The position numbers were made by a program, and so were the translations under genes. From contig OX597826.1 in assembly GCA_951406725.2 (NCBI GenBank), positions 45,198,001-45,262,000 on the forward strand: 64,000 bases of DNA, written 5' to 3'. Origin of the DNA: Octopus vulgaris (lineage: Eukaryota). Shown in pieces: positions 1,326 to 58,112 of the stretch. Under the pieces are notes generated by a model. The model had not been told where the DNA came from. It saw nothing but the letters and a program-made list of their open reading frames with translations, and did not search any database. Each line of letters starts with the position of its first letter. Position 1 is the first letter of the stretch.

Positions 1326-1409
1326 ACTTTCCTGAAGAGAAGATTGCGGTGTATACAATTTATTCTTCTGAATAGTATCAGTGGAATTTTCGAAACATGT
1401 GACGAAAGT
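1326..1409 (+). ncRNA. Degenerate minimal hammerhead ribozyme in a Penelope-type pLTR fragment (about 1245-1460) between TA tracts
   Basis: actttc-CTGAAGA-gaag...tttc-GAA-ACATGTGA-C-gaaagt. U16.1 is mutated. Downstream sequence resembles the 18901-19210 family. Confidence 0.6.
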
Positions 1410-2215
1410 AAAAATATTTGATTTATCCCTGCGTTAAACGCCATTTATTTATTCATGTTATATACATATATATATATATATATATATATATATATATATA
1501 TATATATATACATATATATGGATCTAGATTTTTCATTCGCAAAATATGCATTTTGGAAAAGACATTAAAAAATCAGAAAATCGGCTATAATAATAAAGTG
1601 CTCCAGTCTAATTGCTATTAAGATATGATGTTGTGGAGAAAAAAATTGGAGGAAAAAGTTACAGAGGTTTAAAAATCGAAAAATTGTGTATTTTTAGCCA
1701 ATAGCGGGACAGAAATTTTCTGCGTTGAACAGAGCGGATTCAACTTTCATGTTGTACCCTGTGAAATTTATAGTTTAGCGTCTGTGAAATGACCACTTTA
1801 TTGTAGGTTTCTAAATAAGCTGAAATACCTTATTTCATTTAGGTTTCTAAATAAACAGAAATAACTAATCACATCAGCATGTATCATCTTACTGTTTCTT
1901 TTGTCTCTTCATTGATTGTATGTTTTTATTATTTGTTTAAAATTTGTTATTATAATATATTTGTCTGCCTTCATGCGTTTCGGTTCAAGTACTTAAATCC
2001 TTATTTATGCAATTAAATTGCATTATGAATTTTAAAAAACGAAAAACTTCGTCGGGGCAAAAACTGATTGTTATCAAGGTAAAAAATTTTCACACATCCT
2101 AACGGGTGGAGAGTTCATTGCAATTGAACTGTAGCATATTTATCTTGGATTCTGTTCTAAAAATAGCTAGTGGCTGACGTTGACTTCACAATTGATATAG
2201 AGTTAAACCGGTGTA

Positions 2216-2460
2216 CATTTGTATAAATATCTCTAGCAAAGAACAACCTCTTTCACACAGGTCAGCTACAAGATGCAGGAGGAAAGAGTGAGATAAAGTT
2301 GTGGCGAAAGAGTCAGCAAAAGTTCGCCATTAACTTCTGCCGGAGCCGCGTTGAGCTTAGGTGTTTCGCTCATAAACACATACATCGCCCGGTCTGAGAT
2401 TCGAACTCGCAATCCTTCGACCGTAGTCCGCTGCTCTAACCACTAGGCCATGCGCCTCCA
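2216..2460 (-). mobile_element. SINE family C (tRNA-derived head)
   Basis: Minus strand tggaggcgcatggcctagtggttagagcagcggact...gagttcgaatctcagaccggg (A and B boxes). Second copy at 14533-14668. Confidence 0.8.
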
Positions 2461-2540
2461 CACACACACACACACACACACACACACACACACACACACA
2501 TATATATATATATAAATGTAACAGCCGTGAATATGAGGTA

Positions 2541-2678
2541 GGAAACTTGTTTCTCAACCGCATCATTGTGGGCTCAGTCCCACTGCGTGGAACCTTAAGC
2601 AAGTGTTTCTCTACTATAGCCACGTGCTGACCAAACGTTTGTGAGTGGATTTGGTTGACGGAAACTGAAAGAAGCCTG
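2541..2678 (+). mobile_element. SINE family A, degenerate 5' half
   Basis: cagtcccactgcgtgg...gtgagtggatttggttgacggaaactgaaagaagcc. Confidence 0.75.
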
Positions 2679-3307
2679 GCATATATATATATATATATAT
2701 ATATATATGTGTGTGTGTGTGTGTGTGTGTATATATATATATGTATATGTGTGTGTGCAAGGGGCTTCCACGCTGTTTCGATCAACCAAATTCACTTACA
2801 AGGCAATGGTTGGCACACAGCTTTAGTTCAAAACACTTGCTCAATGTTCCACGCATAGATGTGAATTTGAAATCACACAGCCTAATGCTGTAGACAATCA
2901 ATAGCGAGCAATAGATGCAACTATTGCGTATATATTCGAATATTATACAAAAACAGTCACGTGTATATATACACACAATAGACGCATCATTCTTTAGTTG
3001 ATATTTCTACAGATCTCTTTCTCGATCACTAACGAAGCAACCAGAAAGAATTAGGTGTTATCTTAATGCCACATGCAGTAGGTTTAACGGATAACACTAT
3101 CATAAAGTTAGCGTAATTCAATTACAGCGGCAATAGATAATCTTTCCAATTTGATTCTATTAACACTTCTAAAATACAGAGATCTATTTGAGAGAAATTC
3201 TAATTTTATCATATGCATTAATATTGTCTACTGTGCGGTTGTTAACGTTTGAAAACTATACGGTATTACTATTCCATTCCGAAATTTGCAACTGTTATTT
3301 TCTTGTC

Positions 3308-3356
3308 AATAATAATAATAATAATAATAATAATAATAATAATAATAATAATAATA
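3308..3356. repeat. (AAT)n microsatellite
   Basis: Directly visible. Confidence 0.95.
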
Positions 3357-54976: not shown

Positions 54977-56660
54977 ACACCCACACACACCCACACACTC
55001 ACATACACACACACACACACACGCACACATATATGTATGTATGTATGTATTTGTAACCAACGTCCTAGTTTTCAACTAGAACAAGCCAAGTGTTCTGAGT
55101 TTGAAGATTTCTTGGAGACACAAGGCACGTTATATAATGTCTAATATCAGTGTCACTATGGAGAATAACTATTAATATCTCTAATTTCAAATACTGTGTA
55201 CATTAATAATATTTGACTGTCTCTCTATGGAGTACTTTTCTTATTACTCCTACCTTAATGGAAGAGTGAGCCATGTGTGTATGTGTGTGCGTGTGTGTAT
55301 TTATGTAAGCATTTCATGTGTACTTTTATGTTTGTGGGGTTGTTTTAGCAATTGTTCTTTCAGTGAACGGTACTGACCACAGGACTAACGGTAGTTCGAA
55401 GTAATATTCTAAGAAGTCACTAATCTTAGAAATTATCAAAGATGGAGCTCTTTGGAAACCCTAAGTTCCTCACAACTACCCTGCTAATCTAATAATAAAT
55501 GTAAAGATACATTTCAGAAAATTAATTTACTTTTGTCATCATGATAAATGAGAAGAGATTGGCCATGCCGTTTTTCTTCCGTTTTTTTTTCTTTTTTCAA
55601 TCCCTTTCTTTCTCATTATAATTCGTATCTTTTTCTTTCTCTTTAGGTAGTGGTACGTTTTTAGATATATCCGCGCAATTGGTTCTCTAGAAGACAATCT
55701 TAATTAATTTTACAAATGCCAAATACTTGATATGATGCCAAAGCGAATGGCACCTGCAGATAGGTTAACCGTTTCCTTCTTCATATCTGGTGTGTGTTGC
55801 CCAGCCAAAGAAAAAGGACAAAGGCAGTAAAAAAAAAAAAATAACAAGTAGGGGATGAAATTAGAAGAAAGGAAAGGGGACAGTTTTTTTCTGGGGTTTT
55901 TTTTTTTGTGACTGTTTGTCAGAAACACTCTGTTGTTGGGAAAAGCGGCCATTTATCTTTGGAGATAAAAAACAAAACAAAAAAGGGTATCAGGTTTACA
56001 CAACTGCTGTTCTATGTCATGTTGTAGCATGACATCAAACTGATATCGAATGTACTGAGAATATGTAAAGCCTATATATATATATATATATATATATATA
56101 TATATATATATATACACATACATACATACATACATGCATACATACATACTTGTTGAAGGTATCTGTTTTCTAATGTCGATATTCAATTACGATTATATTT
56201 TATGGAATGGTTAAACAAGTAAATGGACTGTTTCTAGACACAATTACATTCAGGTTTTAGGGATATGTGTGTTATTATTCATTAGATAGCTTCGCCCACG
56301 CGGACTGCCTTCCACAGAAATACGTTTCTTACATTTCAGCTTCTTTCAGTTATTGGACTGCGGCCATGTAGACTTACTCGAACAAATCAACCCACAACTT
56401 GTATAAATCAGGCACATAGTCTATCGGTTCCTTCGCGAACAGGAACGTTCTGGATACGGAGACAAACACCACTTCTCTCTCTCTTCTCTCTCTCTCTCTC
56501 TCTCTCTCTCTCTCTCTCTCTCTGTATATATATCCGTGTGTATGTATGCGTGTACCGTTGATCACCATGCAATATATATATATATATATATATATATATA
56601 TATATATATAGAATTCACTTGAATCTCAATCACTTAACCGTATATATATATATATATATA

Positions 56661-57096
56661 TTACGGAGATATACTCGCATAGCAAGTGATTTGATCTGAG
56701 ATCGTGTGCTGGAACGAAAACAACTGCAGCGTGGAAGGTGTTTGTAAGCCATTTAAGAAACACACAAAAGCCGTTCGATTCACTTCAACATTTAAGTTTA
56801 ATTTGTCAAAATATTTTCGTCGCTAAAATCCGCGACCTGTTCACTGACAAAAGTCCGTGCTGCAGCACCTGTTTTACGTACCCGTAACTTAGCGGTTTGG
56901 CAAAAGAACTGATAGAAATAAGTACTAGGCATACAAAGAATAAGTTGTGCTGCAGCACGGATTTTTGTCAGTGAACAGGTCGCGGATTTTAGCGACGAAA
57001 ATATTTTGACAAATTAAACTTAAATGTTGAAGTGAATCGAACGGCTTTTGTGTGTTTCTTAAATGGCTTACAAACACCTTCCACGCTGCAATTGTT
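56661..57096. mobile_element. Fold-back insertion in (TA)n, G3-C8 hammerhead family, copy 2, with SINE-derived spacer
   Basis: Near-perfect 150-bp arms at 56719-56868 and 56947-57096, with an unpaired left extension of about 58 nt. The spacer is SINE tail sequence. Confidence 0.9.
56964..57013 (+). ncRNA. Minimal hammerhead ribozyme, G3-C8 variant (mirror copy 56802-56851 on minus)
   Basis: tttgtca-GTGAACA-g-gtcgc(ggatttta)gcgac-GAA-AATATT-T-tgacaaa: 7-bp stem I, 5-bp stem II, palindromic stem III. Confidence 0.78.
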
Positions 57097-57180
57097 ATAT
57101 ATATATATATATATATATATATATATATATATGTGTGTGTGTGTGTGTGTGTGTGCATGTATTCTTTTATTCATTTGCTC

Positions 57181-57504
57181 GTTTACTTGTTTCAGTCATT
57201 TAACTGTTGCCATGCTGGAGCACCACCTTTACTCGAGCACCAGCATCGGTTGTCATGCGATGTTGTGGGCACAAACACAGACACACAAACATATACACAC
57301 ACATACATATATATATATATATATATATATATATATATATATACGATTGGCTTCTTTCAGTTTCCGTCTACCAAATCCACTAACAAGTATTTGGTCGGCG
57401 CGAGGTTATACTAGAAGACATTTGCCCAAGGTTCCACGCAGTGGGACTGAACCCGGAACATTGTGGTTGGTAAGCAAGCTACTTCTCACACAGCCACTCC
57501 TGCG
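57181..57504 (-). mobile_element. SINE family A with internal tail deletion
   Basis: tttacttgtttcagtcat...cagccactcctgcg. Confidence 0.85.
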
Positions 57505-57542
57505 ACTATATATATATATATATATTCTTTTATTCTGTTATT

Positions 57543-58112
57543 CTTTTGTTTCAGTCATTTGAGTGCGGCCATGCTGGAGTACCGTCTTTAGTCGGACAAA
57601 TCGAGCCCACCACTTATTCTTTGTATGTCTAGTACTTATTTCTATCAGTTCTTGTGCCAAACCGCTAAGTTACGGGTACGTAAACACACCAACATTCAGG
57701 TGATGGTGGGGGGACAAACACACATACACATATATACACATATATAAAACAAAAGACAGAAACACAGAGACAACAAGCATGTGTATTAGTTTGACATTCG
57801 GGAAAAATGTGTTTGACGTTTCGAGCTTACGCTCTTTGACAGGAATGAGAGGGGGGGAAATGGAATGAGAGTGAGAGGAAAAAAAGAGAGAGTGAGACAG
57901 AAAACAAATGTGTCTTGATTAACGGTTTCACTCGTACGGCAGGTTTTCACTCGGTTTCCTCTCGGTTTCCATTTACGAAATTCACTAACAAAGTATTAGT
58001 CGGCCCAGAGTTAGAGTTGAAGACACTTGTCTCAGGAGCTGGAAAGTGAAATTAAACTCGAAACCAGGCGGGTGAAAATCGATTTTCTTAATCACAGAGC
58101 CATGCCTGCACC
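57543..58112 (-). mobile_element. SINE family A tail (57543-57722) and degenerate head (about 57960-58112)
   Basis: The tail is clearly homologous; the head is highly diverged. Confidence 0.65.
57745..57935 (-). mobile_element. pLTR-like fragment with CTGTC(G/A)A hammerhead-like motif (57811-57846); relative at 28527-28637
   Basis: Minus strand reads CTGTCAA-a-gagc(gtaa)gctc-GAA-ACGT-C. The 28527-28637 fragment carries gtaggctc-GAA-ACGT-A-aaagac and similar flanking sequence. Confidence 0.5.

Follow-up and report, generated by a model that had tools for sequence, protein, structure and literature searches.

In its active conformation, the hammerhead ribozyme makes a tertiary contact in which the bases at positions 3 and 8 pair. 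Small hammerhead variants of Penelope-like elements (PLEs) with a short stem III, the subject of work by Lunse et al. in 2017 that PMC6765202 cites, reportedly cleave as dimers. The closest described motifs are the minimal hammerheads of Cervera and De la Pena (2014; PMC4209133), type I ribozymes with a short stem I, an extra base between positions 9 and 10.1, a G10.1-C11.1 pair and a palindromic stem III, which occur in many families per genome and as opposite-strand pairs 100-700 bp apart. Their U3-A8 variant, with about 1,300 matches in Schistosoma mansoni and a UUGAAAA core in Fig. S3, was missed by the first descriptor, and weak dimer cleavage was reported (PMC4209133). Natural U3-A8 and A6C cores, an insertion in the GAAA (U13a) and palindromic stem III in repeats were described by Perreault et al. 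(2011; PMC3088659). In PAc, the hammerhead of the anole element Poseidon, the ribozyme adjoins the start of the open reading frame (ORF) in a pseudo-long terminal repeat (pseudo-LTR), two reverse transcriptase (RT) start sites give a tail, and uncut RNA is the main template (Frangieh et al., 2024; PMC11167929). In this study, we found twelve motifs resembling these systems in a 64,000-nucleotide (nt) stretch of Octopus vulgaris DNA (GCA_951406725.2, contig OX597826.1, positions 45,198,001 to 45,262,000; hereafter the window), which is microsatellite-rich with a GC content of 35%. They belong to eight genome-wide repeat families, A to H. Minimal Penelope hammerheads, dimer cleavage and natural U3-A8 are already published; the new part is the high-copy family A, which carries G3-C8, together with its U3-A8 sister, family B. 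No report of hammerheads in octopus was found in the paper listings and passages searched.

The original prediction had proposed about ten hammerhead-like loci, giving their positions as the outer ends of stem I and, for minus-strand motifs, as the low coordinate. All twelve motifs lie at these positions and exceed shuffled controls, but they represent eight families rather than ten to twelve independent events: the motifs at 32968/33020 and at 56802/56964 are inverted pairs from one insertion each, that at 21488 is of the same family as that at 56964, and that at 1326 clusters with that at 19075. On the plus strand, position 3 lies at 1332 and 22011 (CUGAAGA), 19080 and 39183 (CUGAUGA), 21495 and 56971 (GUGAACA), 33023 (UUGAAAA) and 37354 (CCGAUGA), and on the minus strand at 33001 (UUGAAAA), 45878 (UUGACAA), 56844 (GUGAACA) and 57842 (CUGUCAA). 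The three-way junction (stem I, NNGANNA, stem II, GAAA, A15.1-U16.1 and H17) is present, with an extra A needed in the GAAA of family C and an extra G in family H. The simple pattern of stems and core proposed at first thus has its departures, to which an extra base after A9 in families A, B, F and H and stem II regions of about 55-60 nt in families D and E also belong; the extra G of family H precedes GAA. The invariant residues U4, G5, A6, A9, G12, A13 and A14 are kept in families A, B, C, D, E and G and are broken among the aligned copies of F (U6 in 25/25) and H (C4 in 21/22).

As expected from the original prediction, positions 3 and 8 are Watson-Crick paired in the best-preserved motifs and in 11 of the 12 overall. 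The exception, C3.A8 at 57842, likely reflects CpG decay, because family F is mostly C3-G8. A strict descriptor with both positions free gave five matches in the window, all of them Watson-Crick, as against 0.03 Watson-Crick and 0.03 other matches per shuffled window (n=60), while a loose descriptor had heavy background below score 11. The final descriptor recovers seven of the twelve motifs, the remaining five being decayed copies of families that do fit. Rfam gave no match in the window at the gathering score and no hammerhead at E<=10 within 21476-22120; below the gathering score, among 150 of 275 matches listed, only microsatellite-driven microRNA look-alikes were seen.

Family A has the core GUGAACA, and its G3-C8 form is predicted from the sequence to be self-cutting. 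One copy lies at 21488..21538 (plus strand; extra G after A9, stem III palindrome AAUAUU, U17 at 21531) within a head-to-head pair at 21329..21621 between (TA)n runs, whose minus copy (21329-21474) begins at the predicted cut site and bears a tail. A second head-to-head insertion (56663..57096) joins a minus copy with a tail (56663-56868) to a plus copy (56947-57096); the hammerheads are at 56802..56851 (minus strand; G3 at 56844) and 56964..57013 (plus strand; G3 56971, C8 56976, U17 57006; stem I of 7 bp, stem II of 5 bp), and the likely ORF start of the element is at 56752 on the minus strand. Genome-wide, the 38-mer starting at the cut site has 2,809 exact matches (control, 0), and the copy number of family A is at least 2,809. 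From the first 100 matches listed we took 66 copies: every one of the 54 solos, plus six of the 23 inverted pairs, which were chosen for unusual gaps. When two short-gap pairs and one duplicate were left out, 61 copies picked on the 3' side only remained, 10 of them truncated or unparsed, and G3-C8 was present in 50 of the 51 parsed cores. Neither G3 nor C8 has an alternative letter at 5% or more in contigs of four runs with four organism labels. Five older GUGACCA relatives also retain G3-C8, with AAUU in two of the five. A pattern search for further G3-C8 families gave 776 matches (control, 409), the first 100 of which, inspected by eye, comprised variants of family A, a small number of older GUGACCA relatives and an abundant repeat lacking stem II. 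This repeat resembles short interspersed elements (SINE-like), and it is its decayed copies that fit the G3-C8 pattern.

Unlike families A, F and H, the alignment text of PMC4209133 has no G3-C8, A6U or U4C core, and the core variants named in section 8 of PMC3088659, described there as rare, include neither G3-C8 nor A6U, whereas here they are fixed in high-copy families; U4C occurs once in that paper. The G3-C8 found in the literature is an engineered mutant only (PMC3884650, PMC11167929), and C3G/G8C, built into PAc in the latter, is the natural state of family A. No report of natural G3-C8 or A6U was found in the paper listings and passages searched; the Lunse 2017 alignments, which may contain G3-C8 examples, as well as subscription papers and figure images may bear on the novelty.

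Family B is represented in the window by a decayed copy at 33020..33057 (plus strand) and its inverted partner at 32968..33004 (minus strand; U3 at 33001, stem III AAUU, U17), and as a family has UUGAAAA with U3-A8, an extra G, AAUU, U17 and a 3-bp stem I. The DNA of A and B aligns along the element, and frames opening 92 and 104 nt after N3 encode similar peptides (score 38, reached by 7 of 20,000 shuffles; six other families score 23 or less); two of the five GUGACCA copies share this similarity (scores 39 and 36). By analogy with the anole element, the ORF likely begins with this frame, though no full-length copy bore this out. Since A and B are homologous, their differences are double changes between homologues, both at the tertiary contact (G3-C8 in A, U3-A8 in B) and in stem II (GUCGC/GCGAC with C-G in A, GUUGC/GCAAC with U-A in B). 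Family B was seen solely as short copies (25 + 20 loci), and no long form occurred in the 20 of 29 pattern matches taken; it probably derives from Penelope as a non-autonomous element with the ribozyme at its start. The 5' end of its copies (L057-L079, L274-L293; window 33010) is constant, lying some 14-16 nt before U3, and the element measures roughly 220 nt.

The pairing extends beyond the window. In a 200-kb sample taken at round coordinates of three contigs (C1-C3), a descriptor free at positions 3 and 8 found 7 motifs at 6 loci, all of them Watson-Crick (6 C-G, 1 G-C), as compared with 0.5 matches expected from shuffles (0.1 Watson-Crick, 0.4 other). The extrapolated density is about 35 per Mb, or about 1e5 per 2.8-Gb genome (Poisson range roughly 4e4-2e5; three contigs), in contrast to up to about 9,000 per genome in PMC4209133. 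In 870 kb scanned, 194 matches fell into 21 clusters, 19 of them Watson-Crick (14 C-G, 4 U-A, 1 G-C), and the other two were single-locus AUGAUGA matches. Window queries had seeded eight clusters; 11 of the remaining 13 are Watson-Crick, two of them additional U3-A8 clusters. Of 13 families observed at more than one locus, none carries a fixed 3-8 mismatch. Family C, together with a relative in L030/L117, is probably a separate U3-A8 lineage. The 3-8 state is fixed within each family, and the covariation lies between families. Thus, a scan free at both positions bears out the proposed pairing, and a search fixed on CUGANGA indeed misses 8 of the 12 window motifs and one of the seven in the 200-kb sample, but as a novelty the claim must give way in part, U3-A8 and the CUGANGA miss having been published in 2014 (PMC4209133). 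A comparison of core (0.96-1.00) with flank (0.87-0.98) conservation within families was set aside as evidence, since similarity to a query containing the core had decided which copies were picked.

Two families are tied directly to coding PLEs. A 5'-truncated Penelope-like ORF at 46518..47771 (minus strand; 417 amino acids in the window) encodes an RT with YLDD, a CX4CxxC linker and a GIY-YIG endonuclease domain 640 nt upstream of the family C hammerhead, and the element, a member of a very young family, ends near 45678 in (TA)n. Long copies of family A, all 5'-truncated as far as seen, have a 3' untranslated region of about 1 kb preceded upstream by RT (YVDD), CX3CxxC and GIY-YIG, with a 487-amino-acid open frame in L302. 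The GIY-YIG of family A reaches 22.9 bits in Pfam (cut-off, 22.6); its RT has no Pfam match, but matches the family C RT at E 9e-10, and the two proteins are about 27% identical. A PDB sequence search with the family A RT gave nothing relevant. Families A and C are endonuclease-containing (EN+) PLEs, with RT plus C-terminal GIY-YIG in a single ORF upstream of the hammerhead, and share the C-terminal GIY-YIG, the CX2-5CxxC linker and the (TA)n targeting of Neptune/Nematis PLEs (Craig et al., 2021; PMC8557442). Family D has an upstream frame (L118:813-1241) that is endonuclease-like or GIY-YIG-like by eye, with CxxC and CxH motifs and no CCHH, and that has no Pfam GIY-YIG match; the motifs are as in Hydra clade PLEs (PMC8557442). 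All these clade placements are based on motifs. An endonuclease fragment near family H in L173 is unrelated to that family.

The insertions themselves point the same way. Two alternative 3' ends, inverted 5'-truncated partners and (TA)n ends occur in families A, B, C, D, E and H, inverted partners were also seen in family F, and these features are published PLE anatomy (PMC8557442, PMC11167929). It is on this anatomy that a Penelope link for E, F, G and H is likely. The proposal of many Penelope families, each with its own variant, is therefore supported by upstream coding frames for A and C, by eye for D and through homology to A for B, but for E to H by insertion anatomy alone. A preprint (10.64898/2026.07.22.740005) ties tandem retrozymes to PLEs, whereas the loci here are not tandem: no head-to-tail array covers a motif in the window, nearly all family A neighbours are inverted, and the head-to-tail repeats with a hammerhead each that define non-LTR retrozymes were not found at the window loci.

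Taken together, we consider it probable that minimal type I hammerheads reside in the 3' ends of several Penelope-like families, where slow cutting after N17 is predicted, with dimers likely formed by way of the palindromic stem III. Within the pseudo-LTR, the ribozyme would lie some 90-105 nt ahead of the point where the ORF of the following tandem copy likely starts, and its role would be to trim transcripts that are tandem or read-through. In coding lineages, selection for the active conformation would have limited change at the 3-8 tertiary pair to double substitutions (C-G, U-A, G-C), while dispersed copies would be mostly dead and decay neutrally. Most family A copies hold the whole core and few start at the cut site; therefore uncut RNA seems to be the usual insertion template, and because most genomic copies are made from uncut RNA, cutting would be slow or regulated. 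Computed nearest-neighbour energies favour the dimer over two monomers for family C (-18.1 vs -9.4 kcal/mol) and family H (-28.1 vs -17.4 kcal/mol); for D and E, only the basal pairs of stem II entered the model, which makes the result uninformative. Head-to-head pairs lie on opposite strands and, since one copy is antisense, cannot dimerise within one transcript and would form a long hairpin.

Several points weigh against this explanation. The dimer is not favoured for family A (-28.8 vs -30.8 kcal/mol), F (-13.1 vs -16.6) or B (-0.4 vs -10.4, for the decayed window copy). In the monomer fold of family A, stem I runs on through G3.U17, and the RNA could thereby be trapped in an inactive state; U17 instead of C17 would, we infer, avoid a full G3-C17 trap, an idea with which an unpublished-data remark in PMC3884650 agrees, but U3 does occur with A17 in two other clusters. 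Among 66 family A copies, just four start within 3 nt of the cut site, and two of these four come from a pair selected because its gap was short. In PAc, engineered C3G/G8C mutants were only partly rescued, and hammerhead cleavage was dispensable for insertion in vitro (PMC11167929). A coding frame for E, F, G and H was not found in 13-21 upstream flanks each. As for the covariation, only two or three independent double changes are documented, albeit with no fixed mismatch; the permutation value for 3-8 pairing, 1e-5, ignores family kinship and so overstates the case; and the descriptor of the 200-kb census, though free at 3 and 8, was shaped after the window families had been seen.

Some of these points would suit a different history, in which the non-canonical cores are catalytically dead relics of a dispensable ribozyme, spread from their sources by drift, with the 3-8 pairing left over from a few ancient events. 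A6U, U4C, an extra A and an extra G are fixed in large families, changes at A6 give low activity (PMC3088659), uncut RNA is the main insertion template both here and in vitro (PMC11167929), and family B is known solely from short copies. However, under drift 3-8 mismatches would be expected to become fixed much more frequently than compensated pairs, and none of the 13 multi-locus families has one; families A and C, both young, are linked to open frames, and stem II is likewise compensated between A and B. We therefore regard this history as unlikely for the families in general. For F and H, whose changes sit where activity usually drops, relics may nevertheless be at hand: both are likely weak or relic ribozymes, and activity of the A6U and U4C families may be weak or dead. 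U4C is also a natural viroid variant.

Less probable still is that the fold has been retained for another role, such as binding a protein of the element, or regulating how the adjacent downstream ORF is spliced or translated. The motif does lie between an AG resembling a splice acceptor or start site, about 25 nt upstream, and the likely start codon, and non-cleavage functions were left open in PMC4209133. But the 3-8 pair belongs to the catalytically active conformation (PMC3088659), and a paired state that is kept while both bases change fits selection on catalysis better than sequence recognition. Chance matches in AT-rich DNA rich in inverted repeats have next to no probability, since, although loose descriptors yield many background matches and one abundant repeat fits the G3-C8 pattern without stem II by eye, chance is excluded by the shuffle controls, by conservation across families and by the position of motifs downstream of RT/GIY-YIG frames.

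The 5' ends of family A deserve separate mention. Short copies (L214-L271, L002-L036; window 21475, 56947) share one 5' end at an AG about 25 nt before G3, where the long copies show a CTAAC resembling a branch point, along with a run of pyrimidines and (C/T)AG. An extra G before the AG is found in 13 of 20 short copies, about five of which could owe it to an inverted partner, and is absent from long copies. This end may mark a splice acceptor or else a capped start site that the RT copied; upstream of the AG, no exon common to the copies was seen. The family G hammerhead is also preceded by an acceptor-like pyrimidine-AG.

Eight of the motifs served as genome-search queries; each gave 40 scored candidates from a first look that had yielded 51 to 1,820, figures to be read as lower bounds and not as copy numbers, and 22-30 loci were aligned per family. 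The family C hammerhead (45843..45883, minus strand) has UUGACAA (U3-A8), a 4-bp stem II, GAAA plus an extra A, the palindrome ACCGGU, U17 and a 5-bp stem I, features identical in 32/32 rows, some of which are overlapping loci. Reading it as G17 (AACCGGUU then G) was rejected, as it breaks the first stem I pair and the related U3-A8 family has plain GAA-ACCGGU; an A-run at 45738-45768 was likewise rejected as a poly(A) tail, other copies having a short run and then continuing. Families D (19075..19159, plus strand; CUGAUGA with C3-G8, stem III ACAUAUGU, C17) and E (39179..39264, plus strand; CUGAUGA, stem III ACAAUUGU, A17) combine canonical cores and 8-nt stem III palindromes with stem II regions of 55-60 nt, which exceed the lengths given in PMC4209133, so that descriptors capped in stem II length would overlook them and their relatives. 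Family D has a degenerate inverted partner at 18884-19042, family E a truncated one without a core at 39002-39131. A D-related motif at 1326..1408 (plus strand; CUGAAGA) has a long stem II, with stems II and III decayed, and D-like subfamilies change stems I and II in a compensated fashion. An inner hairpin lies within the stem II region of D, E and relatives (19080-19154, 39183-39260, 1332-1403; loci L196, L197).

The motif of family F (57811..57846, minus strand) reads CUGUCAA in this copy and CUGUCGA in the family, with A6U in 25/25 and C3-G8 in 18/25 aligned copies. Family G (22005..22054, plus strand; CUGAAGA) is the nearest of the motifs to the canonical type I form, with a family 6-bp stem I, a bulged stem II and a near-palindromic 11-nt stem III; six copies (L151-L154, L159, L165) share at least 1.5 kb of upstream flank on one contig (C31) and are segmental duplicates. 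The hammerhead-like motif of family H (37350..37397, plus strand) has CCGAUGA, an extra G before GAA and a family stem III of ACAGCUGU, with U4C in 21/22 aligned copies. Stem III palindromes among the families are thus AAUAUU, AAUU, ACCGGU, ACAUAUGU, ACAAUUGU, ACGU and ACAGCUGU, that of G being near-palindromic. The window also holds truncated or decayed pieces of hammerhead-bearing families that the original prediction did not give (15007-15206, 28561-28642, 25990-26116, 54680-54729), copies of the abundant SINE-like repeat, some in tandem (11622-12450, 29277-29458, 61832-62366, 23440-23510), and a 140-amino-acid frame (39997-40419) resembling the C-terminal end of the RT protein of a long interspersed element, presumably RTE-like.

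Ribozyme censuses and repeat annotations fixed on CUGANGA undercount such motifs. That a whole Penelope-like lineage runs on a naturally flipped G3-C8 hammerhead active in vivo can be put forward only tentatively, and we hold it to be somewhat more doubtful than not. If it does, one octopus genome would hold about 1e5 hammerheads, and families A and B, together with the A6U, U4C and extra-A families, would make up a natural mutational series of the catalytic core, with changes known mostly from laboratory mutants and invisible to Rfam and CUGANGA searches. Even so, a natural G3-C8 family with a homologous U3-A8 sister offers phylogenetic support for the 3-8 contact, and it argues for selection on catalysis in Penelope hammerheads, which is debatable since insertion in vitro needs no cleavage. 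The families also provide ready constructs for gauging how much core change a natural ribozyme tolerates.

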